DNA of 64,000 bases from Oligoflexales bacterium (GTDB lineage: Bacteria; Myxococcota_A; UBA9042; DTJE01): contig DUVQ01000097.1 of NCBI GenBank assembly GCA_012840965.1, forward strand, positions 5,045 through 69,044. The letters run 5' to 3'. Of the stretch, positions 851 through 64,000 are shown piece after piece. A program made the position numbers and the translations under genes. The notes under the pieces are model-generated. The model did not search any database, had not been told where the DNA came from, and was given only the letters and a program-made list of their open reading frames with translations. Positions within the stretch are counted from its first letter, which is position 1, and every line of letters begins with the position of its first letter.

Positions 851-860
851 TTTTGTTGCC

Positions 861-1538: not shown

Positions 1539-1567
1539 TTAGGCGGCGAATTGGGGGCGTTGTCAAT

Positions 1568-4008: not shown

Positions 4009-4072
4009 GGCCAAAAAGCCCCCAAGCACAGGGTGATGGAGTATAGCACCGTTGAAGTACGTGGAGAATTCT

Positions 4073-4134
4073 GGGACGGGGACAGGGGCAGGGACAGGTG
4101 GCAGGGACGGGAGGCAGCGACAGGAGGCAGGGAG
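4073..4134. repeat. (GGGRCA)n hexanucleotide array, G-rich on + strand
   Basis: gggacggggacaggggcagggacaggtggcagggacgggaggcagcgacaggaggcagggagg. Confidence 0.8.
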
Positions 4135-4135
4135 G

Positions 4136-4497
4136 CGATTGTGCTGATCTGCTGGATTTGGAGCTAAAAGAAGGTCGAGAGGGCACCCTGCAACATGGTC
4201 CGGGGGCAATCCTGGAGGGCGCTATCGGGAGTTGCCGGGACCCGACGTCTCTTAGCTGACATGAAGAGTGCGCAGCACTCCGTCCGGGCCAAAAGGATGA
4301 ACGTACACGTTAGCAATCGTATATTTTGCCCGGACGATGTCACTAAGAGACAGTCGGGGTGGCTACGGGAGATTTTGGGTCCGGAAGGATGCCCCCGGAC
4401 ATGTTTTAAAACTGTAACGAAGAGGAAAAACGCCAAAAAGAACAAACAACCAGGAACCAGAACATACAAACTAGCAGGATCTGTAGCATCGCCAGGA
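4136..4497. repeat. copy 1 of a ~250-bp structured intergenic repeat element (carries a 112-bp insertion)
   Basis: About 88% identical to 48835..49082 outside the insertion. Contains a long-range inverted repeat aacatggtccgggggcaatcc / ggatgcccccggacatgtt. Flanked by hexamer arrays. Confidence 0.75.
4238..4349. mobile_element. MITE-like 112-bp insertion nested inside the repeat element
   Basis: Absent from the second copy at the identical junction (gggagttgccg|acagtcgggg). Bounded by imperfect terminal inverted repeats GTCTCTTAGCTGAC ... GTCACTAAGAGAC. Confidence 0.55.
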
Positions 4498-4584
4498 TAA
4501 GGGACAGCGCCTGGGCTTGCATCTGTAAACCATCAAGCGTAAGTTAGTCCGTACAGCCCGTTTTACTGACAACTTGGGGGTGCT

Positions 4585-11091: not shown

Positions 11092-11191
11092 GGCAGCGGC
11101 AGGGCCAGGGACAGGGGGCAGGGACAGGGGCGGGGACAGGGCCTGGGACAGGGGGCAGGGACAGGGGCGGGGACAGGGCCAGGGGCGGGGA
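11075..11191. repeat. (GGGRCA)n hexanucleotide array overlapping the stop of the upstream CDS
   Basis: gggcagcggcagggccagggacagggggcagggacaggggcggggacagggcc..., about 19 units. Confidence 0.85.
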
Positions 11192-11192
11192 C

Positions 11193-18933: not shown

Positions 18934-18960
18934 GGGATTCTCCATCAACGAAGTGGTCGG

Positions 18961-20520: not shown

Positions 20521-20636
20521 GGGGACAGGGGCAGGGGCAGGAGGCAGGGGCAGGGGCAGGAGGCAGGGGCAGGAGGCAGGGGCAGGGGCAGGAGGCAGGG
20601 GCAGGGACGGGGGCAGGCACGGGCACAGGGGCCGGC
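20521..20636. repeat. (GGGGCA/GGAGGCA)n array, G-rich on + strand
   Basis: ggggacaggggcaggggcaggaggcaggggcaggggcaggaggcaggggcaggaggcagg... Confidence 0.85.
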
Positions 20637-31478: not shown

Positions 31479-31634
31479 GGACGGGGGCAGGGGCAGGGAC
31501 AGGGACGGGGACAGGGACAGGAGCAGGTTCAGGGGCAGGGTCAGGGACAGGAGCAGGGACAGGAGCAGGGACAGGAGCAGGGACAGGGACAGGGACAGGG
31601 ACAGGAGCAGGGACAGGGACAGGATCAGGTGGGG
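31353..31634. repeat. longest (GGGRCA)n array, ~47 hexamers
   Basis: gggcagggtcagggacaggagcatggacagggacaagagcagggacaggagc.... All three + frames give GQ/RD/DR-rich translations and minus frames give LS/PL-rich ones. Confidence 0.9.
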
Positions 31635-32182: not shown

Positions 32183-32222
32183 GGGACAGGAACAGGGGAC
32201 GGGGGCAGGGACAGGGTCAGGT
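32183..32222. repeat. (GGGRCA)n array
   Basis: gggacaggaacaggggacgggggcagggacagggtcagg. Confidence 0.8.
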
Positions 32223-41390: not shown

Positions 41391-42227
41391 CTAGGAGCCC
41401 TGTGGCAAGAACACCACAGTCCACTTTACTTTATATGCAATTGGCTGTCCGTTTCTGGTAGCTGGCGAAAATCTTAGGCCTTCTACAGCTCGTTTGGCCT
41501 CGACGTTAAAGGCCTCAAGGTCCCCCTTTGTAACTTCAGCCTTTGCAACTTTGCCATCGGCATCAACGTGAAGCTGCAAGGTCACCCTGACTACTCGCCC
41601 CAACTCCCTGTGTTCATTTGGATAAACCCCTTGGACCTGATTTTGAGCCTTTGGTGGGACAATAACCACTTTTTCCGGGGCCTTTTGTTCGGCGGTTGCT
41701 TCTGGTTGCGAGACCCTGGGAGCATCAGGACCATCTCGTTTGAAACCCCTTGCATCTACAGATGGATCGCCAAAAAGGTTCGTTTGTTCGCCAGTTTGAA
41801 CTGCCACGCCGCCATTAAGAGCCACGTTGGACAGGACCAACGGTGCTGGCTTTTTGGGCTCAGTTGGCTTTGCCTCTGGTTCAGGTTTTTTGGCCTCAGG
41901 TTCGGCGGCAGGTTTGGGCGGTTTTGGTTGTGAAGCTGGCTTGCTTTGAGGCTGCTTTGGAGGCTTTTTTGCTGGGGCCGGGGCAGGGGCAGGTTCAGGG
42001 ACAGGGGCAGGTTCAGGGACGGGTTCAGGTTCAGGGACAGGGGCGGGTGGCTTGGCCAGTAGCTCCGCGATTTGCTGTTTTCTGACTTCAATTGGAACCG
42101 GGGCAACTTTTCGGGCTGGCTTTGTGGGCGCTTCAAGTTGACGTCGTGGTGTAAATTCAATGACTGCCACGTGCAGCAGCAGTGATACAACCACAAATAT
42201 CGCCAGTTGTTTGTTGCGATCCATCAA
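41391..42227 (-). CDS. tonB: energy transducer TonB
   Basis: N-terminal TM. Pro-rich spacer PAPVPEPEPVPEPAPVPEPAPAPAP, encoded by the same hexamer motif as the intergenic arrays. C-terminal TonB-C domain. Confidence 0.75.
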   Translation of the reverse strand: MMDRNKQLAIFVVVSLLLHVAVIEFTPRRQLEAPTKPARKVAPVPIEVRKQQIAELLAKPPAPVPEPEPVPEPAPVPEPAPAPAPAKKPPKQPQSKPASQPKPPKPAAEPEAKKPEPEAKPTEPKKPAPLVLSNVALNGGVAVQTGEQTNLFGDPSVDARGFKRDGPDAPRVSQPEATAEQKAPEKVVIVPPKAQNQVQGVYPNEHRELGRVVRVTLQLHVDADGKVAKAEVTKGDLEAFNVEAKRAVEGLRFSPATRNGQPIAYKVKWTVVFLPQGS

Positions 42228-43465: not shown

Positions 43466-43497
43466 TCCCTGGTCCTGTCCCTGTCCCCGCCTGTCCG
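43466..43497. repeat. (GGGRCA)n array, C-rich on + strand
   Basis: ccctggtcctgtccctgtccccgcctgtcc. Confidence 0.7.
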
Positions 43498-47930: not shown

Positions 47931-47967
47931 GACGGGGTCAGGGACGGGGACAGGGGGCAGGGTCAGT
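47931..47967. repeat. (GGGRCA)n array between convergent genes
   Basis: ggacggggtcagggacggggacagggggcagggtcag. Confidence 0.8.
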
Positions 47968-48783: not shown

Positions 48784-48833
48784 GCTTCTTTTGGGGCCAG
48801 GGACAGGGTCAGGGGACAGGGACAGGGCCAGGG
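48784..48833. repeat. (GGGRCA)n array
   Basis: ggggccagggacagggtcaggggacagggacagggccaggg. Confidence 0.8.
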
Positions 48834-48834
48834 A

Positions 48835-49082
48835 GACGCTTGTGCTGATCTGCAGGATTTGGAGCTAAAAGGCGGTCGAGAGGGCACCCAGCAACATGGT
48901 CCGGGGGCAATCCTGGAGGGCGCTATCGGGAGTTGCCGACAGTCGGGGTGGCTACGGGAGATTTTGGGTCCGGAAGGATGCCCCCGGACATGTTTTACAA
49001 CTGTAACGAAGAGATCAAACGCCAAAGCCCAACAAACATCAGGAACCAAAACATGCTAATTAGCAGGATCTGTAGCTGGATA
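48835..49082. repeat. copy 2 of the ~250-bp structured intergenic repeat element (no insertion)
   Basis: Aligns end-to-end with 4136..4497 minus the 112-bp insertion. Has the same long-range inverted repeat and GGUCCGGAAGGA motif. Confidence 0.75.
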
Positions 49083-49130
49083 AGGGACAGGGTCAGGGAC
49101 AGGGCCAGGCGTAGGATCAGGGCAGGGACC
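49083..49130. repeat. (GGGRCA)n array
   Basis: gggacagggtcagggacagggccaggcgtaggatcagggcagggacc. Confidence 0.8.
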
Positions 49131-52100
49131 TTGCGAGGCGGAAGCCTAGGTTTGGCTGCCTGCCAATTGGGGTATTACCATGGCGGAAAGCTGACCTTAA
49201 CAGGCCAGCACCACTACTTAGATTGCCGCCACGATTAGCCCGCGAGCTGCCGGTGCTAGGCCCTACTGGATCAGAGCAACCTTGCTCACACATACTGTAG
49301 TAGGTGGTACTGTACCAGTCGTTCACCCACTCCGAAACATTGCCATGAACATCGTACAAACCCCAATGGTTTGGCAGCTTTTGTGCAACCGGTTGGCTTT
49401 TACTACCCGAGTTATAGCCGTACCAAGCAATGTCTGGAAGTCCAATTCCAAAAGGATTACCCGCGTCACATATTGGTTCCCCATTGTGGCCAACATTGCT
49501 GCCAATCCAGTACGCTGTTGTAGTTCCAGCTCGGGCGGCATATTCCCATTCTGCCTCGGTAGGCAAACGATAACCTGTGCACAAAAGACCAACAAAAGTT
49601 ACATTGCAGGAATAGTTGCCACCACCTGGAGTTCCCGAACAATTGGACAGCTGATAGCAAGGTTGAAAGCCTTCTTCAGTAGAAAGGGCGTTAGCATAAG
49701 CCACAGTATCAAACCAGTTGACCTGTTCCACAGGACAATCATCACCACAGGCGGTGTTGTAAGAAGGATTGTTGCTAAAAATGGCCTTCCATTCACCTTG
49801 AGTCACTTCAGTCTGTTTCATTAAAAAAGGACGTGTAATCGTGACTGGATGAACTGGCCCCTCATTTGCCCATCGGCATCCCTCATCACTAGGTGACCCC
49901 ATCTCAAAAGTACATGCCGGCAGCAAGCACCAGCCGTTGTTGCAAATGGTCGATGCTGTACACCCATCGACCGGTACACAGTTACCGCCAACCGGACGGT
50001 AGCCTTCGATACAGATGCACAAGGGCTGATTCAAAGCTGTGACTACACATGAACCATAACCACTGCAGGTGATACCAGAACAAGGATCTGTAGGGGAGAC
50101 GCAAGCGTGGCCATCCCAGTCGTACCCTTGGTTACAGACACACATGGCCTCATTGGTAGCGGTGATTAGACAGGAACTGTTGCTGCCGCAGTCGACACTT
50201 GAACATGGGTTGGTAGTGGCAGTGCAACCTTGGCCATCCCAATCGTACCCTTGGTTACAGATGCACAAGGCCTCGTTGGCAGCGGTGACCACACAAGAGC
50301 CTTGGTTGCTGCAGGTGACTTGGGCGCATGCATCTTCAATACAAGCCTGGCCCACTCGACGGTATCCTTGGTTACAGATGCACAGGGCCTCGTTGGCAGC
50401 GGTGACTACACAAGAACCTTGGTTGCTGCAGGTGACTCCGGCGCATGCATCTTCAATACAAGCTTGGCCCACTCGACGGTATCCTTGGTTACAGATGCAC
50501 AGGGCCTCGTTGGCGGAGGTGACCACACAAGAGCCTTGGTTGCTGCAGGTGACTTGGGCGCATGCATCTTCAATGCAAGCCTCGCCCACTCGACGGTATC
50601 CTTGGTTACAGATGCACAAGGCCTCGTTGGCGGCGGTGACCACACAAGAGCTATTGTTACCACAGTCGACATTTGAACACGCATTTGTAGCGGCTAAGCA
50701 ATCGTTTCCAACGTTATGGTAGCCTTGGTCACAGATACACAAGGGTTCACTGGTTCCTGTGACTACACAAGAGCCATTTTCACTGCAATCAATGTCTTCA
50801 CAGGGCGAGTTTGGCACTCCGCCTCCTCCTTCATCCCACATGCATGCAGGACCGTTAGAAAGATAGCCAGGCCGGCAAATGCATACGGGGGTATTGTCAT
50901 GAGCAATGGCGCAGACGCCTCCGCCTACACATGTGATCCCTTCACAGGGGTTTTCTTCCGGGGATTCCTGGCAAACATCTTCTTTCAGTGTAAATCCTGG
51001 GTCGCAGATGCAGATTGGCCCGACGGCACCAATGGCGCAACGTCCATGGGTGCCACAGTCGACATTAGTACATACATTTGTGGCGGCGACGCAATTGTTC
51101 TCAACAGCGCTGTAGCCCTCGTCACAGACACACAAGGCCTCATTTGAGGCGGTGACTATACAAGAACCCTTGTAACTACAGAAGACGTCTTCACAGGGTG
51201 AATCTGGTACTTCATCCTCCAGACATTGAGCTCCGTCAGAATGATGGCCAGGGCGGCAAAGGCAGACGGGGGTACTGTCATGCGCAACAGTGCAGACACC
51301 GTTGCCGGCACACATGACGTTTTTGCATGGATCGTCCACTGGGGACTCCTGGCAAAGGTCGTTTATTAGTGTAAATCCTGGGTCGCAGACGCAGATTGGT
51401 CCAACAGCGCCAAGTGCGCAACGTCCATGGGTGCCACAGTCGACATTAGCACACACATTGGTGGTGACAACACAGGTGTTGTCTTCTTGGTGGAAGCCTT
51501 CGTCACAAACACACAAGGCTTCGTTGGCTGCGGTAACTACGCAAGAGCCATTGTTACCGCAGTTGGCGCTCAAACACGGGTCTGCGATGCATTGGTCGCC
51601 GTCTCGCATGTATCCTTGGTTACAAACACACAGGGCTTCGTTGGCTGCGGTAACTACGCAAGAGCCATTGTTACCGCAGTTGGCGCTCAAACACGGGTCT
51701 GCGATGCATTGGTCGCCATCTCGCATGTATCCGGGGTTACAAACACACAAGGCTTTATTGGCGGCGGTAACTACACAGGAGCCATTGTTACCGCAGTTGG
51801 CACTCAAACACGGGTCTGCGATGCATTGGTCGCCATCTCGCATGTAGCCTTGGTCACAAACACACAAGGCTTTATTGGCGGCGGTAACCACGCAGGAACC
51901 AAAGCCGCTGCAATCGATGTTTGTACAGGGTGAGTCTGGTTCTTCCTCTGTGTCACCTTTCACGCACCTGTCACCGTCGGAATGATAGCCGGGACGGCAA
52001 AGGCAGACCGCGGTATTGTCGTGGGCAACCGCACAGACGCCATTGCCTTCACACACTACGCCTTCACAAGGGCTATCCACCAAGGTTTCCTGACAAGTAT

Positions 52101-52929
52101 CGCCATGCAGTGTAAATCCATCGTCACAGATACAGATAGGCCCCTCAGCGCCAAGCGCACAGCGCCCGTGGTCGCCGCAGTCGAGCCCCAAACATGGATT
52201 CGTCACGGCAACGCAATCCTTACCCTCCAGGTGGTAGCCTTCGTTACAAACACACAGCGGCTCGTTTGCGGTGGTCACTACACAAAAACCGTGGTCACCA
52301 CAGTCAACTTCAGAACATGGATTGGTCGTCACAACGCAATCCTTACCCTCCAGGTGGTAACCTTCGTTACAAACACACAGCGGCTCGTTTGCGGTGGTCA
52401 CTACACAAAAACCATTGTCACCACAGTCAACTTCTGCACATGGACTAGGCACGGCAACGCAACTGTTGCCATCGAGGTGGTATCCCTGGTCACAGATACA
52501 TAAGGCCTTGTTGCCAGCCGTCACAACGCAAGAGCCATAACCACCACAGGTGATACCTGCACAAGGCGAGCGTGGCACTTCATCTTCAACACAAGTGGCA
52601 CCGTCGGAGTGATATCCTGTGCGACAAAGACACACTGCGGTTTTGCCCTGGACAACAGCACAGACGCCATTGCCATCACATGTGATCTCCGCACAAGGGT
52701 CATCAACTGGGGATTTCTTGCAAACCTCGTCTTGCACAGTGTAACCAGGGTCACAGATGCAGATTGGACCTTCAGCCCCAACTGCACAACGCCCACGACT
52801 GCCGCAGTCAACACCAACGCAGTAATTCTCGAACTGCTCGTCATCAAAGCCAAAATCGAAAGAGCGGTCGTTATTGCTAACACAGGCGATGAAAAACAGC
52901 GTAACTAAAGGCAAAACTCTCTTCAACAT
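49117..52929 (-). CDS. giant lipoprotein: ~28 EGF-like Cys-rich modules plus C-terminal FGE/SUMF1-like domain (paralog 1)
   Basis: Start at MLKRVLPLVTLFFIAC|VSNN. Repeated CxxxDCGxHGxCxxxxxxxxCxCDxGYxxxxxxC modules. C-terminus RLPTEAEWEYAARAGTTTAYWIG...GLYDVHGNVSEWVNDWY...RGG...GFRLARSLP matches the FGE-sulfatase domain. Confidence 0.75.
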   Translation of the reverse strand: MLKRVLPLVTLFFIACVSNNDRSFDFGFDDEQFENYCVGVDCGSRGRCAVGAEGPICICDPGYTVQDEVCKKSPVDDPCAEITCDGNGVCAVVQGKTAVCLCRTGYHSDGATCVEDEVPRSPCAGITCGGYGSCVVTAGNKALCICDQGYHLDGNSCVAVPSPCAEVDCGDNGFCVVTTANEPLCVCNEGYHLEGKDCVVTTNPCSEVDCGDHGFCVVTTANEPLCVCNEGYHLEGKDCVAVTNPCLGLDCGDHGRCALGAEGPICICDDGFTLHGDTCQETLVDSPCEGVVCEGNGVCAVAHDNTAVCLCRPGYHSDGDRCVKGDTEEEPDSPCTNIDCSGFGSCVVTAANKALCVCDQGYMRDGDQCIADPCLSANCGNNGSCVVTAANKALCVCNPGYMRDGDQCIADPCLSANCGNNGSCVVTAANEALCVCNQGYMRDGDQCIADPCLSANCGNNGSCVVTAANEALCVCDEGFHQEDNTCVVTTNVCANVDCGTHGRCALGAVGPICVCDPGFTLINDLCQESPVDDPCKNVMCAGNGVCTVAHDSTPVCLCRPGHHSDGAQCLEDEVPDSPCEDVFCSYKGSCIVTASNEALCVCDEGYSAVENNCVAATNVCTNVDCGTHGRCAIGAVGPICICDPGFTLKEDVCQESPEENPCEGITCVGGGVCAIAHDNTPVCICRPGYLSNGPACMWDEGGGGVPNSPCEDIDCSENGSCVVTGTSEPLCICDQGYHNVGNDCLAATNACSNVDCGNNSSCVVTAANEALCICNQGYRRVGEACIEDACAQVTCSNQGSCVVTSANEALCICNQGYRRVGQACIEDACAGVTCSNQGSCVVTAANEALCICNQGYRRVGQACIEDACAQVTCSNQGSCVVTAANEALCICNQGYDWDGQGCTATTNPCSSVDCGSNSSCLITATNEAMCVCNQGYDWDGHACVSPTDPCSGITCSGYGSCVVTALNQPLCICIEGYRPVGGNCVPVDGCTASTICNNGWCLLPACTFEMGSPSDEGCRWANEGPVHPVTITRPFLMKQTEVTQGEWKAIFSNNPSYNTACGDDCPVEQVNWFDTVAYANALSTEEGFQPCYQLSNCSGTPGGGNYSCNVTFVGLLCTGYRLPTEAEWEYAARAGTTTAYWIGSNVGHNGEPICDAGNPFGIGLPDIAWYGYNSGSKSQPVAQKLPNHWGLYDVHGNVSEWVNDWYSTTYYSMCEQGCSDPVGPSTGSSRANRGGNLSSGAGLLRSAFRHGNTPIGRQPNLGFRLARSLP

Positions 52930-53033
52930 AGCAACCCTCCAGGCAACCGGCATCTATTCCAGAAACCACCGCCTCACAAACGAAAAATCAAGGGGTTAGC
53001 AGGTTCAGGCTAGCATCAGCATGGATCCACGTC

Positions 53034-53075
53034 AAGGGCAGGGCCGGGGAGAGGGATAGGAGCCGGGGACAGGAC
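53034..53075. repeat. (GGGRCA)n-related G-rich array
   Basis: gggcagggccggggagagggataggagccggggacagg. Confidence 0.6.
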
Positions 53076-53084
53076 CCCAAGGTA

Positions 53085-56000
53085 CTAGGGCAGCGACCTA
53101 GCTAGACGTAAGCCAATCATGTAGGCCGAGTAGGAAGGCGCAGCGTCGAGGCGTGCAGCTGATCGTAACTTGTCAGCATGGGCGATAAACCAGCCTCCAC
53201 GATAAACCCGCGTCGTACCCCCCTGAAATCCAATTGGATCTGTACAGCCCTGTGCACAGTAGTCGTAATAGGTGGCACTGTAAAAGTCATACACCCATTC
53301 AGCTACACTGCCGTGAACATCATACAAACCCCATTGGTTTGGAAGCTTTTGCCCAACTGGATGGCTTTCATTACCCGAGCTGTAGGCATACCAGGCAATC
53401 TCAGGTAGTCCCGTCCCCGAAGGATCTCCGTTGTTACACACTGGCAACCCATTGGACCCAATGTTACTCCCAATCCAATAAGCGGTCGTTGTTCCAGCCC
53501 TAGTGGCATGTTCCCACTCTGCCTCGGTGGGCAATCGATATCCATTACACCTAAGACCAGCAAAACTTGCTGACGAGCAATTAAAGCTAGCGGTACCTGG
53601 GGTACCATTACATCCATACAGGGTATAGCACTGATTAAAACCGTCTTCCAAGGAAAGCCTGTTCGCATAATCAACCGCAGCATACCAGTTGACATTCTCT
53701 ACAGGGCAGTCATCTCCACAAAGGTCGGCATGAGATGGATTGGTGCCATAAATCGCCTTCCATTCTCCTTGGGTCACCTCGGTCTGTTTCATGAAGAACG
53801 GACGTGTAATCGTGACTAGATGAACTGGCCCCTCGTTATTCTTTCGGCATCCCTCATTACTAGGAGACCCCATTTGAAAGGTGCACGCAGGGATCAAGCA
53901 CCAGCCGTTCGCACAAACACTCGGGGCTTCACACACAGGATCGTCCTCAACACAGTTGGTTCCATCTGGACGATAGCCTTGATTACAGACGCATAAGGCT
54001 TCATTCAAACCTGTAACCACACAAGAACCATGGCCGCCGCAGTTGATACCTGTACATGGGCTAGCAATACAATTGTCTCCATTGCGAAGGTATCCTGGGT
54101 TACAGACACACAAGGGGTTATTGTCGGCTGTGACTACGCAAGAGCTGTTGGTTCCGCAGTTGACACCTATACATGGGCTGGCAATACAATTTTCGCCATC
54201 GCGAAGGTATCCTGGGTCACATACACACAAGGGCTCATCGTCGGCAGTGGCCACGCAAGAGCTGTTGGTGCCGCAGTTGACACCTGCGCATGGATTAGGC
54301 ACAGGCTCGCAGGTGTTACCATTGCGGCTGAAGCCCTCGTTACAGACGCATAGAGGTTGATTGGAACCTGTGATTACACAGAAGCCATTGCCACCGCAGG
54401 CAACACCAGAACATACGTTAGGTTTGCATTCATTGTTTACGCGACGGAAGCCCTCGTTACATACACACCTGGGGTCAAAGTAACCATCGACCACACAGAA
54501 ACCATTAGCGCAGCTATAATCCATACATGGATTAGGGTGGCAATTTGGGCCATGGTTAAAGTACCCGTAGTCGCATACACACAAGCCTTCGTTGGCTGCG
54601 GTGACTACACAAGAACTATGGGTGCCGCAGTGGGTCAATCTACATGGGCTATCCAAACATCTATCGCCATCGCGATAGGAGCCCTCGTTACAGATACACA
54701 ACGCTTCGGCGGAATTAGTAACTACACAGGTACCCCTATTGCTGCAGGTGACATTTTTACACGGATTTTGGACACATTCATCGCCACTGCGAATGAAGCC
54801 TGGGTAGCAGATACACACGGGTTGATTGGAGACGTCGGTCACACAATAGCTATAGGTACCGCAGTCTTTGTTTGCACATCCAATTCTTTCGCAGTAATCG
54901 CCAAACCTATAGTAGCCATGGTCGCAGACACACACGTCTTGATTGTCAGCGGTGACCACACAAGAACCGTGTTCACTGCAGGTCTTTCCTGCACAAGGTG
55001 AGGGTGGCGCTACAACTTCCACGCATTTAGCACCGTCAGAGTAGTAACCAGGGCGGCAATGGCAGAAAGGGGTATTGTCATGGGCAAGGGCGCAGACGCC
55101 ATTACCTGCACATGTGACGTTTTCACAGGGGTCATTTAAAGGGGTGACTTGGCAAACACCATCTTGCAGTGTGTATCCTGGGTCGCAGATGCAGATATGA
55201 CCGGCGGCGCCAAGTGCGCAACTCCCATGCTCACCACAGTTGGCATTATCACATGGATTGGGCGTCAGAACGCAGTTGTCCCCAACGCTGTAGTAACCTT
55301 GGTCGCAGACACATAAGGCCTGCTTGCTGGCGGTGACCACACATGAACCTTTGAAGCCGCAGGTGATGCCTTCACAGGGCGAAACCTCCACCGTGTCTTT
55401 TACACAGACGGCACCGTCAGAATGATAGCCAGGACGGCAATGGCAGAAGGGGGTATTATCATGTGCGAGAGCACAGACTCCATTGCCCACACAAGTGACG
55501 TTTTCACAGGGGTCATTTACTGGTGTCACTTGGCAAACGCCATCTTGCAGCGTGTATCCAGGGTCGCAGATGCAGATCGGCCCGGCGGAGCCAAGTGCGC
55601 ACCGTCCATGTGCACCGCAGTTGGCGTTCTCACATACGTCTGTATCGGGAACACACTCGTTGTTTACCGGGTGGTAGCCTTGGTCACATACACATAAGGC
55701 TTGATTATCAGCGGTTACTACACAGGACCCTTTGTAACTGCAGGTAATGTTTTCACATGGTGAAACTGGCGTTGCGTCTTTGACACAGACGGCACCATCG
55801 GAATGATAGCCAGGGCGGCAAAGACAGACCGCGGTGTTGTTGTGGGCAACAGCACATGCCCCATTGCCTGCACATACAACGTTTTTACAGGGGTCGTCTA
55901 CTGGGGTTGCTTGGCAGATGCCGTCTTGCAGCGTGTATCCAGGGTCGCAGATGCAGATTGGCCCAACAGCGCCAAGTGCGCACCGTCCATGTTCACCGCA

Positions 56001-57227
56001 GTTGATATCTGCGCATGCATTCGTCGTGGCAACGCAGTTGTTGCCGTCGCGACGGTAGCCTTCGTGACAGATACATAATGCTTCTTTGGCAGCGGTGACT
56101 ACACAATAACCCTTGTTGCTGCAGGAGACGCCCGCACACGGATCCGCGATACAATCGTTATCGTCCTGAATGTAGCCTCGGTTACAGAGACACATGGCCT
56201 CATTTTCGGCGGTGACTATGCAAGAGCTGTTGTTACCACAGTTGGCATTGAAACACGGGTCTGCGATACACTCGTTGTCAACTTGCAGGTAGCCTTGGTC
56301 ACAGATACACAGCGGTTCGTTTTCGCCAGTGACAACACAAGAGCCAAAGCCACTGCAGGCGATGTCTTTACACGGCGATCCCGGTCCTTCACCACCTCCA
56401 TCTAACAGACATGTGGCACCGTCGGAATGATAGCCATGGCGACAGATGCAGACGGGGGTATTATCATGCGCAACGGCACAGACACCATTGCCAGCACATA
56501 CGATGTCTTTACAGGGGTCGTCAACGGTGGATTCTATGCAAACCCCGTCCTGCAGCGTGAATCCTTGGTCGCAGATGCAGATGGCCCCAACGGCGCCAAG
56601 TGCACAACGCCCGTGTGCGCCACAGTCGACCCCTGAACATGGATTGGTGGTCGCAACGCAGTTATCGTCCCCCTCCTGATGATAGCCTTGGTCACAGATA
56701 CAAACGGCCTGATTGTCTGCATTGACCAGACAAGACCCATGCCCTCCGCAGGTGACGCCAGCACATGGACCAGCAGTGGCAACGCAGTTATCGCCCCCCT
56801 CCTGATGGTAGCCTTCATCACAGATACAAACGGCCTCATTGTCTGCGTTGACCAGACAAGACCCATGCCCTCCGCAAGTCACGCCAGCACAGGGCGAGCG
56901 TGGCACATCATCTTCCACGCAATTGGTACCGTCCGCGTGATAGCCAATGCGGCAAAGACACACCGCGGTTTTACCCTGGGTAACAGCACAGACTCCATGG
57001 TTATCGCAGGTGATTCCTTCACACGGGTCATCAGTCGGGGACTCCTTGCAAAGACCATCTTGCAGGGTATATCCCTGATCACAGATGCAAAGCGGCCCCT
57101 CAGCGCCAACTGCACAGTGCCCATGGGCACCACAGTCAAAACCGACACAATAGTTCTCGAACTGACCGGTCCCGCCACCACATGCAACAAAAAGCACGGT
57201 AACCAAAGGCAAGGCTCTCTTAAACAT
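53085..57227 (-). CDS. giant Cys-rich repeat lipoprotein with C-terminal FGE/SUMF1-like domain (paralog 2)
   Basis: Start at MFKRALPLVTVLFVAC|GGG. About 1,380 aa. Same module types, including near-identical ~127-aa super-repeats. C-terminus RLPTEAEWEHATRAGTTTAYWIG...GFRLARSLP. Confidence 0.75.
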   Translation of the reverse strand: MFKRALPLVTVLFVACGGGTGQFENYCVGFDCGAHGHCAVGAEGPLCICDQGYTLQDGLCKESPTDDPCEGITCDNHGVCAVTQGKTAVCLCRIGYHADGTNCVEDDVPRSPCAGVTCGGHGSCLVNADNEAVCICDEGYHQEGGDNCVATAGPCAGVTCGGHGSCLVNADNQAVCICDQGYHQEGDDNCVATTNPCSGVDCGAHGRCALGAVGAICICDQGFTLQDGVCIESTVDDPCKDIVCAGNGVCAVAHDNTPVCICRHGYHSDGATCLLDGGGEGPGSPCKDIACSGFGSCVVTGENEPLCICDQGYLQVDNECIADPCFNANCGNNSSCIVTAENEAMCLCNRGYIQDDNDCIADPCAGVSCSNKGYCVVTAAKEALCICHEGYRRDGNNCVATTNACADINCGEHGRCALGAVGPICICDPGYTLQDGICQATPVDDPCKNVVCAGNGACAVAHNNTAVCLCRPGYHSDGAVCVKDATPVSPCENITCSYKGSCVVTADNQALCVCDQGYHPVNNECVPDTDVCENANCGAHGRCALGSAGPICICDPGYTLQDGVCQVTPVNDPCENVTCVGNGVCALAHDNTPFCHCRPGYHSDGAVCVKDTVEVSPCEGITCGFKGSCVVTASKQALCVCDQGYYSVGDNCVLTPNPCDNANCGEHGSCALGAAGHICICDPGYTLQDGVCQVTPLNDPCENVTCAGNGVCALAHDNTPFCHCRPGYYSDGAKCVEVVAPPSPCAGKTCSEHGSCVVTADNQDVCVCDHGYYRFGDYCERIGCANKDCGTYSYCVTDVSNQPVCICYPGFIRSGDECVQNPCKNVTCSNRGTCVVTNSAEALCICNEGSYRDGDRCLDSPCRLTHCGTHSSCVVTAANEGLCVCDYGYFNHGPNCHPNPCMDYSCANGFCVVDGYFDPRCVCNEGFRRVNNECKPNVCSGVACGGNGFCVITGSNQPLCVCNEGFSRNGNTCEPVPNPCAGVNCGTNSSCVATADDEPLCVCDPGYLRDGENCIASPCIGVNCGTNSSCVVTADNNPLCVCNPGYLRNGDNCIASPCTGINCGGHGSCVVTGLNEALCVCNQGYRPDGTNCVEDDPVCEAPSVCANGWCLIPACTFQMGSPSNEGCRKNNEGPVHLVTITRPFFMKQTEVTQGEWKAIYGTNPSHADLCGDDCPVENVNWYAAVDYANRLSLEDGFNQCYTLYGCNGTPGTASFNCSSASFAGLRCNGYRLPTEAEWEHATRAGTTTAYWIGSNIGSNGLPVCNNGDPSGTGLPEIAWYAYSSGNESHPVGQKLPNQWGLYDVHGSVAEWVYDFYSATYYDYCAQGCTDPIGFQGGTTRVYRGGWFIAHADKLRSAARLDAAPSYSAYMIGLRLARSLP

Positions 57228-57485
57228 ACAACCCCTCCAAGTCATCGACACGCTAGTCACGTGGAAAAACCACAAAGACCAAACCTATTGCGACCCTAGT
57301 GCGCACGCTACTCCTGCCATAAATTCGTGTCAACAGAAAGATCTGACAAAAAAAACAGTGGCTTAAGTTGCCAAAGCCCGTGGTCGTTATTTACCCCCGC
57401 AATCGATAAACGGTCCCCAAACAATCTGGTGGTACGAGTACCGAGGAAGGATAAACAAAAGCGGAGGGGGTACGGTGGGGGCTGA

Positions 57486-60400
57486 CTAGGGCAGCGACCT
57501 TGCCAGTCTAAAGCCCACCCAGGATAAACCATTTGTGGGAATAGCAGAGTTACGGTAGGCTGATCGGCACTCCCCAGCGTTGTTCAAGTATGAGCCACCA
57601 CGATAAGCCCGATTATTGCCTGTACTAGGTCCCAACGGATCAGTACAACCGTTCTTACAACTGTTGTAATGGTCATCAAACCGGTCATTAACCCATTCAC
57701 TCACATTACCGTGAACATCGTACAGACCCCATTGATTTGGTAACCGATCCTTAACTTTTTGAGTCTTGCCAGCTGAGTTATATGAATACCAACCAGCCTC
57801 TGGTAGCCCAATTCCATCGGAGCTATTACCACATACCGGTTGCCCACTGTACCCAACATTGCTTCCCATCCAATACGCGGTGGTAGTTCCAGCTCTAGTC
57901 GCATATTCCCATTCTGCCTCGGTTGGTAAACGATAACCCGTACAGCCAGGACCAAGATAAGTTACATCGCAGGTATATTCGCCAGAACCTGGAGTACCTG
58001 TGCAAGACCCTATGCTGTAACATTTGGACAGGCCCTCTGTTGCGGAGAGTTTATCCGCATAACGAACCGCGTCATACCAATTGACATTGTCCACAGGGCA
58101 CATAGCACAATAGGGTTGGCGCATCGACGGATTGGTGCCTGGAAAGACCGCCTCCCACTCATACTGGGTTACTTCAGTTCGCTTCATCCAGAACGGACGA
58201 GTAATCGTGACTGGATGAATTGGTCCCTCGTTATTAGACCGGCATCCCTCATCGTTAGGAGACCCCATTTGAAAGGTACACGCTGGGATCAAACACCAGT
58301 TGTCGGTGCAAGTACTTGAAGTCACGCATGCATCGTCCAATACACAGCTAGCACCAACGGGGCGGTAGCCTTTGTTACATACACACATGGGTTTAAGTGA
58401 GCCAGTGACTACGCAAGAACCTTTACCACCGCAGGTAACGTTATTACACGGATTAGGCTGACAAAGCGTACCTTGGCTAATGTACCCCTGGTTGCACACA
58501 CATAAGGCCTCATTCGAAGGTGTGACTACACAATGGCCTTGATCACTGCAGGTAACTCCAAAGCAGGCATCTGCGACGCATTGATTGCCACTGTCAAGAC
58601 GGTAGCCCTCGTCACAGACGCAGAGAGCTTGATTGGAAGCGTCGACTACGCAAGAACCATGTTCGGAGCAGGTAACTCCTGAACATACATCTGGGACGCA
58701 CTCATTGCCATTGCCAGGACGGTAGCCCACGTCACAGATACATAAGGCTTGATAGGCAGAGGTGACTATACAAGCACCATTCCCAGCGCAAGAAACTCCA
58801 ACGCATGGATTTGCGACACAGGAACTACCATTGTGGAGGTACCCTTCATTACAGACACATAACGCTTGGTTCTTGGATGTGACAACGCAATTGGCATTTG
58901 CGCCGCAATTGGCGGTTGCACATGGATTCTGTATGGGAAGGCAATCGTTCCCAGTGCTGTAATAGCCTTCGTCACAAACACACAGGGGGTCATTGTCGCC
59001 GGTGGGAACGCAAGAACCGTTGCCTCCGCAGTCGATGCCCGCGCATGGTGAATCCGGCGCCTCATCTTGCACGCACTCGTCGCCGTCAGAATGATAGCCA
59101 GGTCGGCACAGGCAGACAGGGGTATTGTCATGAGCAATCATGCAAACGCCGTCGCCTTCACATTCGACACCATCACAAGGGTCATTTACTGGGGCCACCT
59201 TGCAAACGCCACTTTGCACCGTGTATCCAGGGTCGCACACGCAGATGTGCCCCCCAACTCCAAGTGCACAACGTCCATGCTCGCCACAATTGACTCCCAC
59301 ACATGCATTTGGCGTAGGGATGCAATTGTTGCCTTCTGCATGGTAGCCTTGGTCACATATACATAAGGGTTGGTTGCCACCGGTTACTATACATGAGCCT
59401 TTAAAACTGCAGGTAACGTTTTTGCATGGTGAATCTGGTACCACGTCTTGCACACACTCGTCACCGTCAGAATGATAGCCAGGGCGACAAAGGCAGACGA
59501 CGGTATCATCATGCGCGATGGCACAGACTCCATTGCCAGCGCATATGATCCCTTCACATGGGTCATCTACTGGGGCCACCTTGCAAATTCCATCTTGAAC
59601 TGTGTATCCCGGGTCACACACGCAGATGTGTCCGCCAGAGCCAAGGGCACAACGCCCATGCTCACCGCAATCGACCCCAAAACATGCATTGGCGGCGACA
59701 ACGCAATCGCTTCCAACGCTGTGGTAGCCTTGGTCACATACACACAAAGGTTCATAGGCGCCGGTGATCAAGCACGAGCCATTGTAACTACAGTCAATGT
59801 TTTCGCATGGTGTACCTAGCACTCCCGCTTTCAGACACTGGGCACCGTTAGATTGATAGCCAGGGCGGCACAGGCAGACAGGGGTATTGTCATGCGCGAC
59901 GGCACAGACCCCACCGCCAGCGCACAACACCCCTTCACATGGGTCATTCTGCGGGGGCACCTGGCAAACGCCACCCAGCGATGTATATCCTGGGTCACAG
60001 ACGCAGATTGGCCCATCAGCGCCAACGGCGCAACGTCCGTGCTCGCCACAGTTGGCCTCCGTACACACATTGGTGGCGGCAATGCAATTGTGGCCATCTC
60101 TAAGGAATCCATGGTCGCAGACACACAAGGCTTTATTGTCGCCGGTTACTACACAATGGCCGTTACCACCGCAGGTGATATCTGAACAAGGGTCAGCGAT
60201 GCACTGGTTGCCCTCTCGAAGAAAGCCTGCTTTACATACACACAAGGGTTGGTTGGCAGCAGCGACCACGCAAGAGCCATTGTCAGGGCAGTTAACATCC
60301 GAACATGGGTCAACAAGGCACTCGTTGCCAACTCGAAGATAGCCCTGGTCACAGACGCACAAGGCCTCATTGTCAGCGGTCACCACACAGTGGCTATCGT

Positions 60401-61379
60401 CACCGCAACTAACTCCCAAACATGGGTCAATGACGCACTCGTCGCCATCTCGAAGATACCCTTGGTCGCAGACACACAAGGCCTCATTGGCAGCAGTCAC
60501 CACACAAGAGCCAAAACCACTGCATATGATGCCTGTACAGGGCGAATCTGGCACCACATCTACCACGCACTTGGCCCCATCCGCGTGATAGCCAGGGCGA
60601 CAGTGGCAGACGGCGGTATTATCGTGTGCAACGACACAGGTACCGTTGCCAGCACATACCACTCCTTCACAAGGGTTGTTCACTATGTGTTCCTTGCAAA
60701 CGCCTCCTTGCAGGGTAAATCCTTGGTCACAGACGCAGATTGGCCCCTCAGCTCCAATGGCACAGCGTCCATGGTCACCACAGTTGACTCCTGCACATGC
60801 GTTGGTATTGGCAACGCAATTGTCGCCTTCCAGATGGTAGCCATCGTGGCAGAAACATGATGCTTCATTGGTAGCGCTAACAACACAAAAACCGTTGTCG
60901 CCACAATCGAATCCTACACAAGGACCAGTGGTGGCAACGCAGTTGTTGCCGTCAAGATGGTAGCCTTGGTCACAGACACATAACGGCTTGTTTTCCGAGG
61001 TGACTACGCAAGAGCCGTGACCACCACAGGTGATGCCTTTGCATGGTGTGTATGGCCCTACATCTTCCACGCATTTGGTCCCTTCCGCATGATAGCCGGT
61101 GCGGCAAAGACAGATGGCGCTGTTACCCTGTGTAACAGCACAGACGCCATTACTTCCACATGAGATCCCGTTACAAGGGTCGTCAACCGGGGATTTATTA
61201 CAAACACCGTCTTTCAGGGTGTAACCTGGGTCACAGATGCAGATTGGACCTTTGGAACCGACTGCACAGTGGCCATTGTTGCCACAGTTGACGGACTCAC
61301 AGTAATTCTCGAATTCACCGCCATTGCCACCACAGGCGACGAAGAGCAGCGCGACCAAAGGCAAAGTTCTTTTAAACAT
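57486..61379 (-). CDS. giant Cys-rich repeat lipoprotein with C-terminal FGE/SUMF1-like domain (paralog 3)
   Basis: MFKRTLPLVALLFVAC|GGNGG. 1,297 aa. C-terminus RLPTEAEWEYATRAGTTTAYWMG...GFRLARSLP. Confidence 0.75.
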   Translation of the reverse strand: MFKRTLPLVALLFVACGGNGGEFENYCESVNCGNNGHCAVGSKGPICICDPGYTLKDGVCNKSPVDDPCNGISCGSNGVCAVTQGNSAICLCRTGYHAEGTKCVEDVGPYTPCKGITCGGHGSCVVTSENKPLCVCDQGYHLDGNNCVATTGPCVGFDCGDNGFCVVSATNEASCFCHDGYHLEGDNCVANTNACAGVNCGDHGRCAIGAEGPICVCDQGFTLQGGVCKEHIVNNPCEGVVCAGNGTCVVAHDNTAVCHCRPGYHADGAKCVVDVVPDSPCTGIICSGFGSCVVTAANEALCVCDQGYLRDGDECVIDPCLGVSCGDDSHCVVTADNEALCVCDQGYLRVGNECLVDPCSDVNCPDNGSCVVAAANQPLCVCKAGFLREGNQCIADPCSDITCGGNGHCVVTGDNKALCVCDHGFLRDGHNCIAATNVCTEANCGEHGRCAVGADGPICVCDPGYTSLGGVCQVPPQNDPCEGVLCAGGGVCAVAHDNTPVCLCRPGYQSNGAQCLKAGVLGTPCENIDCSYNGSCLITGAYEPLCVCDQGYHSVGSDCVVAANACFGVDCGEHGRCALGSGGHICVCDPGYTVQDGICKVAPVDDPCEGIICAGNGVCAIAHDDTVVCLCRPGYHSDGDECVQDVVPDSPCKNVTCSFKGSCIVTGGNQPLCICDQGYHAEGNNCIPTPNACVGVNCGEHGRCALGVGGHICVCDPGYTVQSGVCKVAPVNDPCDGVECEGDGVCMIAHDNTPVCLCRPGYHSDGDECVQDEAPDSPCAGIDCGGNGSCVPTGDNDPLCVCDEGYYSTGNDCLPIQNPCATANCGANANCVVTSKNQALCVCNEGYLHNGSSCVANPCVGVSCAGNGACIVTSAYQALCICDVGYRPGNGNECVPDVCSGVTCSEHGSCVVDASNQALCVCDEGYRLDSGNQCVADACFGVTCSDQGHCVVTPSNEALCVCNQGYISQGTLCQPNPCNNVTCGGKGSCVVTGSLKPMCVCNKGYRPVGASCVLDDACVTSSTCTDNWCLIPACTFQMGSPNDEGCRSNNEGPIHPVTITRPFWMKRTEVTQYEWEAVFPGTNPSMRQPYCAMCPVDNVNWYDAVRYADKLSATEGLSKCYSIGSCTGTPGSGEYTCDVTYLGPGCTGYRLPTEAEWEYATRAGTTTAYWMGSNVGYSGQPVCGNSSDGIGLPEAGWYSYNSAGKTQKVKDRLPNQWGLYDVHGNVSEWVNDRFDDHYNSCKNGCTDPLGPSTGNNRAYRGGSYLNNAGECRSAYRNSAIPTNGLSWVGFRLARSLP

Positions 61380-61417
61380 GTAAACCCTCCATGCAGTTAG
61401 GCATAGGGCAAAAGCAA

Positions 61418-64000
61418 CTAGGGTAGTGACCTCACAACGCGAAATCCGTTCAAGGGCGAGCGGGTGGCAGGTGCGCTAGAGCCACGGCTAGCCGACCGAA
61501 CCTTGCCAGCTAAACTACTAAAATCGCCTCCACGCTTAACCTTGTTCTTGAGTGTACCTTGCGGAGGTCCCACTGGATCTGTGCAATCCCCTTCAGAGCA
61601 TTGTTGGTAGTAGTTCAACTTGTACCAGTCGTATACCCATTCTCCAATATTGCCATAAAGATCGTACAAACCCCATGGATTCGGTAGCTTTGCCTCACTT
61701 ACCTGGGTCGTATTGCCTGAGTTATAACCGTACCAAGCAATCTCCGATAGTCCGATTCCTGAAGGGTCACCTGCATTACAAACTTCTGCTCCATTGTACC
61801 CAATGTTGCCTCCTATCCAGTATGCAGTCGTAGTTCCAGCACGAGCGGCATATTCCCACTCTGCCTCGGTTGGCAAACGATATCCTGTGCAACTAAGACC
61901 CTGAAAAATTACCGATGTACAGGTATAGCCGTAATTACCTGGAGTACCTGTGCATCCAGTTGTTATGTAACAGAGGGGTAATCCTTCCTTAGTAGAACGT
62001 GTATTCGCATAGGCAACCGCGTCATACCAACTGACATTATCCACAGGGCAGTCTTCACCACAGGTTTGGTTTTGGGATGGATTGTTGTTAAAGACACTTT
62101 CCCAATCTCCCTGAGTCACCTCACGTTGTCCCATGATAAAAGGACGTGTAATCGTAACAAGATGCGCCGGACCTTCATCGCCATCCCGACATGCTTCAGT
62201 GCTGGGAGAGCCCATCACGAAGGTACATGGTGGGATCAGGCACCAGCCGTTACGGCAAGCACTTAAAGTTGAACACTTTTCAACCCTTACACAGGTGTTG
62301 TCCACACGATGATAGCCTTGGTTACAGACACACAAGGGTTGATTGTCACCGGTGAGTACACAAGAACCATTACCACCGCAGTTGTCACCTAAGCACGGAT
62401 TTGCAACGCAAGTACCATCCACGCGCTGGTAGCCTGGGTGACACACACATAGTGGTTGATTGTCACCGGTGAGAGTGCAAGAGCCGTAATCATCACAGGT
62501 GACCCCTGAGCATGGATCGGCAACGCAAGTACCACCCACGCGCTGGTAACCTGGGTCACAGATACATACGGGTTGATTGTTGTGGGCCAGTACACAAGTA
62601 CCGTTACCGCAGTCGATGGCTGAACATGCATCTGCGACGCAGGCGTTGTCATCACTACGGTAGCCATGCCCACACACACATATGGCATCAAACTCATCAG
62701 TGACTATGCAAGAACCTGCATCAGGGCTCGATCCATCACACAGGGCATCTTCACATGGACTGGGATTGCAAAATTGGCGGTTGCTTAGGTATCCAGGTTC
62801 ACAGACACATAAGGCCTCTTGATCAGCGGTGACCACACATAGTTGGTTGTTACCGCAGTAGACTTTGGTACACGGATTATCGGTAGAAACGCATGTGCCG
62901 CCCGAAAGGTGGTTGCCTTGGTCGCAGATGCACAAGGGTTCGTTGTCGCTGGTGACAACGCAAGAGCCTCTGTTATTGCAGGTGACGCCCGCACAAGGTG
63001 AATCCGGCACCAAATCTTGCACACACTGGGTGCCATCAGAGTGATAGCCTGGGCGGCATAGGCAGACGGCGGTATTGTCATTAGCAATCATGCAAACGCC
63101 GTCGCCAGCACATTCGACACCATCACAAGGGTCATTTACTGGGGCTACCTCGCACACCCCCTGTTGCACTGTGTATCCAGGGTCGCAGACGCAGATTGTT
63201 CCGTTGGCACCAAGCGCACAACGCCCATGCTCACCACAGTTGACCACCGCACATGGATTAGGGGTGGCGACGCAATTGTTGCCCACCCGGTGGTAGCCTT
63301 GGTCGCAGACGCATAATGGCTGATTGGCACCGGTGACCACGCAGGAACCTTTGTAACTGCAGGTGATGTCCTTACATGGCGAATCTGGAGCCACATCTTG
63401 CCTACATTCGGCACCGTCAGAAAGATAGCCAGGGCGGCACAGGCAGGTAGGTGTGTTGTCATGCGCAATCATGCAAGCGCCATTGCCAGCACATTCGACA
63501 CCATTGCATGGGTCATATACTGGAGCTGCCTTGCACACCCCTTGTTGCACTGTGTATCCTTCGTCGCAGACGCAGAACGGCCCCGCAGCGCCAAGCGCAC
63601 AACGCCCATTGTTGCCGCAGTTGACATTCGTGCATGCATCAGTGCCGGCAACGCAGTCGTTTTGAACTCGATAGAAGCCTTGGTCGCATATACACAAGGC
63701 CTGATTGGCGCCGGTGACCACGCAAGAACCGTTGTCGTTGCAGTCAACGCCATCGCATGGTGAATCCACCGGCTCCAATTCATCATCTTTCAGACACCTG
63801 TCACCATCCGAATGATAGCCAGGGCGGCAGATGCAGACAGGGGTGTTATCGTGCGCGACAGCGCAGACTCCGTTGCCAGCACATATGACATTTTCACAGG
63901 GGTCATCTACTTGGGATTCTTGGCAAACCCCTTGTTGCAGTGTAAATCCAGGGTCACAGATGCAGATTGGCCCCGCTGCGCCAACGCCACAATGTCCATG
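61418..64000 (-). CDS. giant Cys-rich repeat protein with C-terminal FGE/SUMF1-like domain (paralog 4; N-terminus beyond window end)
   Basis: The frame stays open upstream of the TTG at 63778 (…VCICRPGYHSDGDRCLKDDELEPVDSPC…), so the gene continues past 64000. C-terminus RLPTEAEWEYAARAGTTTAYWIG...GFRVVRSLP. Confidence 0.7.
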   Translation of the reverse strand, partial: HGHCGVGAAGPICICDPGFTLQQGVCQESQVDDPCENVICAGNGVCAVAHDNTPVCICRPGYHSDGDRCLKDDELEPVDSPCDGVDCNDNGSCVVTGANQALCICDQGFYRVQNDCVAGTDACTNVNCGNNGRCALGAAGPFCVCDEGYTVQQGVCKAAPVYDPCNGVECAGNGACMIAHDNTPTCLCRPGYLSDGAECRQDVAPDSPCKDITCSYKGSCVVTGANQPLCVCDQGYHRVGNNCVATPNPCAVVNCGEHGRCALGANGTICVCDPGYTVQQGVCEVAPVNDPCDGVECAGDGVCMIANDNTAVCLCRPGYHSDGTQCVQDLVPDSPCAGVTCNNRGSCVVTSDNEPLCICDQGNHLSGGTCVSTDNPCTKVYCGNNQLCVVTADQEALCVCEPGYLSNRQFCNPSPCEDALCDGSSPDAGSCIVTDEFDAICVCGHGYRSDDNACVADACSAIDCGNGTCVLAHNNQPVCICDPGYQRVGGTCVADPCSGVTCDDYGSCTLTGDNQPLCVCHPGYQRVDGTCVANPCLGDNCGGNGSCVLTGDNQPLCVCNQGYHRVDNTCVRVEKCSTLSACRNGWCLIPPCTFVMGSPSTEACRDGDEGPAHLVTITRPFIMGQREVTQGDWESVFNNNPSQNQTCGEDCPVDNVSWYDAVAYANTRSTKEGLPLCYITTGCTGTPGNYGYTCTSVIFQGLSCTGYRLPTEAEWEYAARAGTTTAYWIGGNIGYNGAEVCNAGDPSGIGLSEIAWYGYNSGNTTQVSEAKLPNPWGLYDLYGNIGEWVYDWYKLNYYQQCSEGDCTDPVGPPQGTLKNKVKRGGDFSSLAGKVRSASRGSSAPATRSPLNGFRVVRSLP

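Follow-up and report, generated by a model that had tools for sequence, protein, structure and literature searches.

The stretch of DNA analyzed here (64 kb in length, hereafter the window) contains two copies of a repeat that is probably a high-copy, non-coding, non-autonomous mobile element, which homes into hexamer arrays, is moved in trans and belongs to an uncultured Myxococcota lineage of anaerobic digesters. Copies occur at dozens of unconnected loci, point in the direction of the (GGGRCA)n arrays in which they lie, have precise ends, and are present in one strain and absent from another at the same site. They are built from nested hairpin modules, the paired positions of which are the most conserved part of the unit. 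The element was previously undescribed; neither Rfam nor the collections of plasmids, phages, and viruses gave a match for it, and a full-text literature search found no published description of it.

Copies, modules, and size classes of the element

Both look-alike segments reported in the earlier note were recovered at the coordinates given there, copy B from 48835 and copy A from about 4134 (Table 1), and an nhmmer search with the family profile found these two copies only in the whole window. The start given for the first segment (48835) is the exact left end of the element, whereas the end given (49082) overshoots by 7 nt into the array. With window positions 4237-4348 (112 nt) left out, the global identity between the two copies was 89% (226 of 253 columns), close to the value of approximately 88% reported before. 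BLASTN aligned one block of 102 nt at 95% identity (E 2e-44) and a second of 140 nt at 90% (E 5e-50), and both MAFFT and BLASTN placed the sole break between these blocks at the 112-nt segment. This segment, the M1 module, had been described as an insertion; the form bearing M1 is the majority form of the family, and copy B is therefore a short variant. The long-range inverted repeat was confirmed in both copies, but the domain closed by its arms, said to be approximately 170 nt, measures 102 nt in copy B; in copy A it measures 214 nt, because M1 is nested within M0. The dodecamer GGTCCGGAAGGA, which had been likened to the apical part of SRP RNA helix 8, was exact in both copies (at 48967 and 4378). 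Copy B has an ortholog with 98% identity in another assembly (L028), and copy A is identical in six further assemblies (L001 and L003-L007). Three contigs (L008-L010) break within copy A, where another assembly (L002) has an N gap; such interruptions are typical of a repeat.

Table 1 Positions of the element copies, their parts, and the hexamer arrays in the window
Feature	Position	Strand	Description
Copy B	48835..49075	+	257-class short member; ends from filled/empty sites and the junction table
Left end (LE), copy B	48835..48866	+	GACGCTTGTGCTGATCTGCAGGATTTGGAGC; read from sequences
M0 domain, copy B	48893..48994	+	Arms AACATGGTCCGGGGGCAATCC (48893-48913) and GGATGCCCCCGGACATGTT (48976-48994), closing 102 nt
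A-rich 3' tail, copy B	48995..49043	+	Most variable internal part of the family
Right end (RE), copy B	49044..49075	+	...AACATGCTAATTAGCAGGATCTGTAG, palindrome TGCTAATTAGCA
Copy B left array	48793..48834	+	(GGGRCA)n on the element's strand, junction ending ...CAGGGA
Copy B right array	49076..49130	+	Hexamers on the element's strand
Copy A	4134..4486	+	369-class (majority) member; carries the M1 hairpin
M0 domain, copy A	4192..4405	+	Same arms at 4192-4212 and 4387-4405
M1 module	4237..4348	+	112-nt imperfect hairpin; in most members, missing from copy B
Copy A left array	4073..4133	+	Hexamers; on the right side only 1-2 degenerate units at ~4495-4510
Element-free array	20521..20634	+	Empty allele of a site filled in another strain (L078)
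Hexamer array	1567-1611	-	Degenerate (GGGRCA)n/(CAGGNN)n
Hexamer array	11102-11187		Degenerate (GGGRCA)n/(CAGGNN)n
Hexamer array	31357-31627		Degenerate (GGGRCA)n/(CAGGNN)n; ~270 nt is the maximal reach
Hexamer array	32183-32219		Degenerate (GGGRCA)n/(CAGGNN)n
Hexamer array	41980-42045		Degenerate (GGGRCA)n/(CAGGNN)n
Hexamer array	43470-43488	-	Degenerate (GGGRCA)n/(CAGGNN)n
Hexamer array	47934-47965		Degenerate (GGGRCA)n/(CAGGNN)n
Hexamer array	about 53032-53072		Degenerate (GGGRCA)n/(CAGGNN)n

Among the matches listed for the core 20-mer GGAAGGATGCCCCCGGACAT, more than 115 metagenome stretches carried the element. Clustering of these matches by their flanks gave at least 62 flank-distinct sites; some clusters represent one site in two related strains, and we therefore estimate approximately 50-60 distinct sites among the matches listed. 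A mismatch-tolerant search of the loci yielded at least 87 complete copies with at least 75 unique sequences, and many contigs terminate inside the element. All of the matches listed came from one uncultured Myxococcota lineage of anaerobic digesters. The gene product adjoining copy A was also found on anaerobic-digester and activated-sludge metagenome contigs and in several NCBI MAGs. A scan for the 20-mer in a species-representative genome collection, which does not hold this species, gave no matches. The nearest ProRS relatives in that collection (82-83% identity) have a GC content of 62-68% versus 52% for the window, and no copy of the element was found in them. In the nearest of all (L131; 68% GC, 83% ProRS identity), one (GGNACG)n array was present (4504-4539) and the element was absent.

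The family unit starts with GAYGATYGTGCTG and finishes with CAGGATCTGTAG, and it consists of five parts: a 5' end (GAYGATYGTGCTG-nnnn-GCAGGATTTGGAGC), a conserved leader (GGATTTGGAGCTAAAAG.AGGTCGAGAGGGCACCC), a rod-like hairpin with the nested modules M0, M1, and M2, a variable A-rich tail, and a 3' end (CATGCTAATTAGCAGGATCTGTAG) that resembles the 5' end. A small palindrome (TGCTnnnnAGCA) with stems of merely 4-6 bp is located at each end. By inspection, the consensus ends match at approximately 16 of 21 positions in inverted register (subterminal) and at approximately 25 of 37 in direct register. Copy B has both ends, the leader, the M0 stem and interior, and the A-rich tail, and lacks the M1 hairpin. 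In its left end, CAGGATTTGGAGC comes after a short palindrome (TGC..GCA), and this end is similar to the right end whether the two are compared in direct or in inverted register. The M0 interior of copy B contains a symmetric GGGA/GGGA internal loop together with the dodecamer (48967-48978). M1 has an outer stem formed by GTCTCTTAGCTGACAT and ATGTCACTAAGAGAC and an inner stem formed by CCGTCCGGGC and GCCCGGACG.

Length classes of 188, 257, 310, 362, 369, 554, and 572 nt, of which the 369 class is the majority, differ by nested hairpin modules. These lengths are counted from a point 25 nt before the left-end anchor motif and extend 85 nt beyond the position at which the tail motif begins. The 362 class has an alternative apical hairpin, the interior of the 310 class has diverged with its pairing kept, and most of M0 is missing from the 188 class, deleted between two copies of GGTCCGG. 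The two longest classes (554 and 572) have M2 within M1; this module is approximately 190 nt long and has its own 18-bp inverted ends. Every class was found at several unrelated sites (the 188 class at five or more), indicating that each has propagated and that the rod interior is dispensable for movement. Neither M1 nor the variant interior was ever found outside the element in 1.14 Mb of loci. M2 was observed once outside its host element, at a contig end (L083 11850-12012; inverted ends GCCCCCAAAATCACCG), so it might be a small palindromic element that is mobile in its own right and became nested into M1. A coding element was rejected, because no ORF is conserved, the ORFs that overlap one window copy have other frames and sequences than those of the other copy, and the class lengths differ by non-multiples of three.

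Hexamer arrays and insertion sites

The window contains 80 matches to the two-unit GGGRCA pattern versus 2.1 expected. These form approximately 14 arrays, which lie in intergenic regions of every type and occupy about one-third of the intergenic regions; 12 of the 14 are on the + strand, the strand that is G-rich at third codon positions. Array length varies by strain, as in the gap at 11092-11192, which spans 22-102 nt among MAGs. The arrays are not accessories of the element; they occur throughout the genome independently of it, and the element uses them as its landing site. In sequence, they match the canonical G-quadruplex motif (G3 tracts, 3-nt loops) and are an unusual bacterial genome feature with G-quadruplex potential. 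Among published repeats, the closest parallel is GGGNATC of Xanthomonas and Nostoc, a family of intergenic simple sequence repeats that form G-quadruplexes (Rehm et al. 2015, PMC4692102). Like these heptamers, the arrays are repeats of 6-7 nt with a G3 tract that occur genome-wide, mostly in non-coding DNA, and with a strain-variable number of units, but they have a GGGRCA hexamer unit, reach up to approximately 270 nt, and are landing sites for a mobile element.

Each copy examined was embedded in arrays and pointed the way of the array: among 71 distinct copies, a sense array was found on the left in 63 and on the right in 55, and an antisense array in none. The earlier note had placed arrays on each side of both window copies, which is correct for copy B, whereas copy A has a true array on its left only. 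With respect to neighboring genes, 16 copies were divergent, 12 and 9 were tandem in the two senses, and 7 were convergent, i.e., their orientation is random. A strict link to the replication strand was also considered and rejected, because the copies are in opposite orientation at approximately half of the two-copy loci, despite the strand bias of the arrays in the window.

Three pairs of filled and empty sites were identified: a filled site of 369 nt in L017 with its empty allele in L106, one of 353 nt in L114 with its empty allele in L108, and one in L078 for which the empty allele is the element-free array of the window. Flanks in these pairs were 94-98% identical, and each empty allele was one uninterrupted array. 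The left junction read CAGG[GA]A in 34 of 35 canonical copies and the right junction read CAGG[GA][AT], while the next array unit outward was as variable as any array unit. Constant junctions beside variable outer units indicate precise ends rather than co-converted flanks, and this combination argues for cutting at defined ends over a spread purely by array homology. None of the 35 copies had a target-site duplication of 2-5 nt; 6-nt flank matches in five of them are explained by array periodicity. The unit hence moves into or out of uninterrupted arrays with its ends fixed, CAGGRA lying on its left and CAGGRW on its right. The filled/empty pairs could represent deletions between the flanking direct-repeat arrays instead of insertions. 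Of the two explanations offered in the earlier note, a family of non-coding RNAs or a mobile element, the latter is supported by the high copy number together with the three polymorphisms.

Copies also showed signs of recombination. At one site, one, two, or three tandem units were present depending on the assembly (L087, L045, and L043) and shared an identical 18-nt spacer, CAGGGCCAGAAACGTGGA, which points to unequal crossing-over. In several copies, one flank was 100% identical to that of another copy while the element differed and the other flank was unrelated. Such exchanged flanks reflect either recombination or assembly chimeras, and some of the mosaicism may be artefact, since most copies come from short-read metagenome assemblies, in which repeats can be mis-joined. 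Truncated copies were of both kinds. In a 5'-truncated copy (L089 ~6560-6700, minus strand), a GGACA microhomology marks the joint between a G-run and ...GGACATGTTTTAAAACTG, after which the tail, right end, and array are intact, and two copies (L075 and L045) are 3'-truncated.

At the third filled site, an island of approximately 5.5 kb with a P4-like tyrosine integrase (411 aa) lies inside the element copy (L078 ~25-5560, minus strand), adjoining the ortholog of window 20521-20634. The sequence TCCGGAAGGA is repeated at both junctions of this island, and on the side of the island the sequence is GTTCGAATCCGGAAGGAGGAACCA, which corresponds to a tRNA 3' end. From these two features, the SRP-like motif of the element seems to have served the island as a secondary attachment site.

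Fold, conservation, and the small RNA alternative

An RNAalifold model of 35 long copies was a single rod-like hairpin of 74 pairs, in which 99.5% of the consensus pair cells were paired versus approximately 41% in slid-partner controls. Covariation across the copies, a check proposed in the earlier note, supported this fold a little: compensatory changes were present in 14 cells at three pairs (132/222, 145/157, and 147/155, all in M1), a level reached by none of 500 shuffles, whereas most pairs (55) never vary. The mean non-consensus fraction was 0.017 at paired rod positions, 0.037 in internal loops, 0.047 in the 5' leader, 0.089 in the apical loop, 0.127 in the tail, and 0.20-0.24 at the two ends. 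The ends are the conserved part of a typical MITE; this element reverses the pattern, with a conserved core and with ends that vary most. Adenine mutagenesis of the tail, as in a DGR, was considered and rejected, because many tail adenines are invariant.

Common one-sided changes were compatible with G.U pairing on the + strand (105 G.U cells at nine sites versus six singleton A.C cells), and the consensus fold energy was -101.8 on the + strand versus -81.1 on the - strand. The + strand was always the more stable one, and so it was in shuffled sequences; since the z-scores were equal on both strands (approximately -6 each), the asymmetry in energy is largely due to base composition. These modeled values are suggestive of the + strand being the folded strand.

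The same features bear on an alternative that we consider unlikely, namely, that the repeats are a multi-copy family of genes for a trans-acting small structured RNA, the dispersal of which would be secondary. The transcript would be the block from about GCAGGATTTGGAGC to ACGAAGAG, comprising a leader with a AAGGAGGU motif, the long rod, and a stem with a UUUU terminator. The predicted + strand RNA would begin near GCAGGATTTGG and end at the UUUU that follows the big stem, and the variable LE and tail would be non-transcribed flanks. Sharp conservation boundaries do frame a discrete unit of approximately 270 nt between variable flanks, conservation is highest at paired positions, where some compensatory change is also seen, UUUU follows a GC-rich stem, and the G.U-compatible changes and the fold energy both point to the + strand. 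However, consensus scans found neither a sigma-70-like promoter nor a canonical terminator inside either window copy, and the LE, where the promoter would be presumed to lie, is the most variable part of the unit. The energy asymmetry loses weight through the equal z-scores, the 188-nt class has spread to at least five sites without most of the rod, the unit matches no Rfam family, and the family is missing from the nearest related genomes.

A link to SRP RNA was not borne out. Searched against Rfam at the gathering score, the whole window gave tRNA-Met only and no SRP; at E<=10, the two copies and one long variant matched neither SRP nor any other bacterial family. The 12-mer (GGUCCGGAAGGA) does resemble helix 8 of SRP RNA (4.5S) in its GGAA tetraloop closed by UCC/GGA, but nothing else in the element matches that RNA, and the site is polymorphic. 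Among 75 unique copies, 35 have the exact motif (T), 31 have GGCCCGGAAGGA (C, i.e., U to C in the RNA), and eight have CTCCCGGAAGGA (CTCC, i.e., CUCC...). SRP RNA was therefore rejected, and we treat the resemblance as a coincidence.

Relation to known elements and mode of spread

Correia/NEMIS of Neisseria, ERIC/IRU of enterobacteria, and RUP and the modular BOX of pneumococci are bacterial MITEs or interspersed hairpin repeats. We know of no parent IS for the element described here. It is small (188-572 nt), non-coding, and multi-copy with insertion polymorphism in three pairs, as a MITE would be, but a target-site duplication of fixed length was not found. Like these bacterial MITEs and hairpin repeats (see the review PMC3184786), it is a non-coding unit of 0.2-0.6 kb that is present between genes tens to hundreds of times within one lineage, and it shares with them long hairpins, length subfamilies, differences in presence between strains, and breaks in short-read assemblies. 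It departs from the known interspersed hairpin repeats on several counts: it inserts only into a G-rich hexamer microsatellite and strictly in one orientation, no target-site duplication is detectable, conservation is greatest in the interior and lowest at the termini, and the likeness of the ends is as much direct as inverted.

Two further groups of elements offer partial parallels. REP/BIME and REPIN sequences use RAYT (Y1 HUH) enzymes, PATEs derive from IS200/IS605, and REPs measure 20-40 nt. The element may be like REP/REPIN sequences and IS200/IS605 PATEs in relying on strand-specific hairpins rather than TIRs, and it resembles them in the lack of a detectable duplication, a short specific flanking sequence, highly conserved stems, and GTAG at the 3' terminus. 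Unlike REPs, the unit is 190-570 nt long, its end palindromes have stems of only 4-6 bp, and no Y1 transposase was found in the sampled sequence. In the second group, IS110/IS1111 elements home into REP or attC sites with a bridge or seek RNA, IS1397 homes into BIMEs, and TRAS/SART are telomere-repeat-specific retrotransposons. With these, the element has in common a sequence- and orientation-specific insertion into a dispersed repeat with no or minimal duplication, subterminal rather than terminal repeats, and a structured non-coding segment of 150-250 nt. It differs from them in that no recombinase gene was seen with it and in its target, a G-rich hexamer microsatellite.

We propose that the unit would integrate only inside pre-existing G-rich (GGGRCA)n arrays, in the orientation of the array and between CAGGRA and CAGGRW units. 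Its movement would be catalyzed in trans by an enzyme encoded elsewhere, which may recognize the conserved leader and the base of the hairpin rather than the termini. The variable ends and invariant core favor a single-strand-hairpin or site-specific mechanism (IS200/IS605-, REP/RAYT-, or IS110-like) over a classical TIR-recognizing DDE transposase. After insertion, recombination would reshuffle the copies, giving tandem amplification and exchanged flanks. No mobilizing gene was found: none of the copies in 1.14 Mb of loci carried an ORF, and no IS-like repeated coding segments were present among these loci. Pfam detected no transposase, integrase, or RT in the window, tblastn with approximate queries for IS200 TnpA and E. 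coli RAYT gave nothing better than E 0.1 in the sampled loci, and no autonomous IS sharing the ends of the element was found in the 1.14 Mb of loci or in the window, which is part of the genome.

If the reading as an array-homing element moved in trans is true, a genome-wide G-rich microsatellite would be used as a landing pad with fixed polarity and without conserved terminal repeats or a target-site duplication, which would point to fold-based recognition and to an enzyme or RNA-guided system worth finding. An improbable extension of this idea is that the conserved core acts as an RNA or ssDNA fold that directs its own oriented, duplication-free homing into G-quadruplex-forming (GGGRCA)n, through an RNA-guided recombinase or through target-primed reverse transcription from the array-like 3' repeats. 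Such an element would be a new class of bacterial microsatellite-homing mobile element.

It is quite improbable that the repeats are instead domesticated intergenic elements comparable to REP/BIME, ERIC, or BOX, acting structurally or in cis and kept uniform by gene conversion and not by ongoing transposition, with host roles such as transcription or replication barriers, sites for nucleoid proteins or G-quadruplex helicases, or stabilizers of mRNA ends. The copies are strictly intergenic and occur in all types of intergenic region, their core is nearly invariant, as concerted evolution predicts, and inter-copy recombination is visible in the exchanged flanks and in the tandems of one to three units with an identical 18-nt spacer; moreover, the arrays occupy about one-third of the window's intergenic regions, like GGGNATC repeats (PMC4692102). 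By contrast, the random orientation to flanking genes argues against a strand-specific role in mRNA, close strains differ in the presence of copies with no obvious consequence, and the restriction to a single lineage speaks against a host function. The constant junctions next to variable array units also count against a homology-only spread.

A retroposed (SINE-like) or RNA-guided (bridge-RNA-like) unit, in which the array-like end of a transcript would pair with the array and be copied by an RT or used by a guided recombinase, is highly unlikely. It would fit a structured and conserved 5' part, a 3' tail that is A-rich and variable, a 3' end that looks like the repeats, heterogeneous termini, an array- and orientation-specific insertion with no target duplication, and at least one copy (in L089) that is 5'-truncated at a GGACA microhomology with its 3' end intact. 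Against it, no reverse transcriptase or IS110-type gene was found in the window or loci, truncation affects both ends, tail variation is not adenine-specific, with many adenines invariant, and the guide-target complementarity seen by inspection was at most 4-7 nt (the GGGA/GGGA loop; AATCCTG versus CAGGATT). A one-off segmental duplication inside the 64-kb window, the fallback of the earlier note, would fit the mere two copies seen there but is refuted by the dozens of copies at unconnected loci and by the three filled/empty polymorphisms.

In practical terms, the family accounts for the breaks and mis-joins at its sites in assemblies of this Myxococcota, which is common in anaerobic digesters, and its filled/empty sites, tandem copy number, and array length offer strain-level markers.

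Several other features were observed in the loci and in the window. In one locus, a stretch of 1.3 kb between two copies (L036 780-2130; also L085 3893-5344) has no ORF of at least 120 aa and no Rfam match, and it contains an intrinsic-terminator-like hairpin on the minus strand (L036 ~815-850); this stretch might represent a large RNA that lacks annotation, or else a gene that has decayed. In the window, four consecutive giant genes (49117-63778, minus strand; 1278, 1396, 1297, and 786 aa) encode dozens of EGF-like cysteine repeats. The first of them ends in an FGE-sulfatase domain (Pfam E 2.5e-44), and copy B lies directly downstream of its stop codon. The 3' (C-terminal-coding) ends of three of these genes share 72-74% DNA identity (repeat family D20). 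A further gene of 2089 aa (12679-18948, minus strand) encodes Dictyostelium-type CTDC repeats and contains nine tandem 165-nt repeats and three 483-nt repeats (13838-15457 and 16436-17701).
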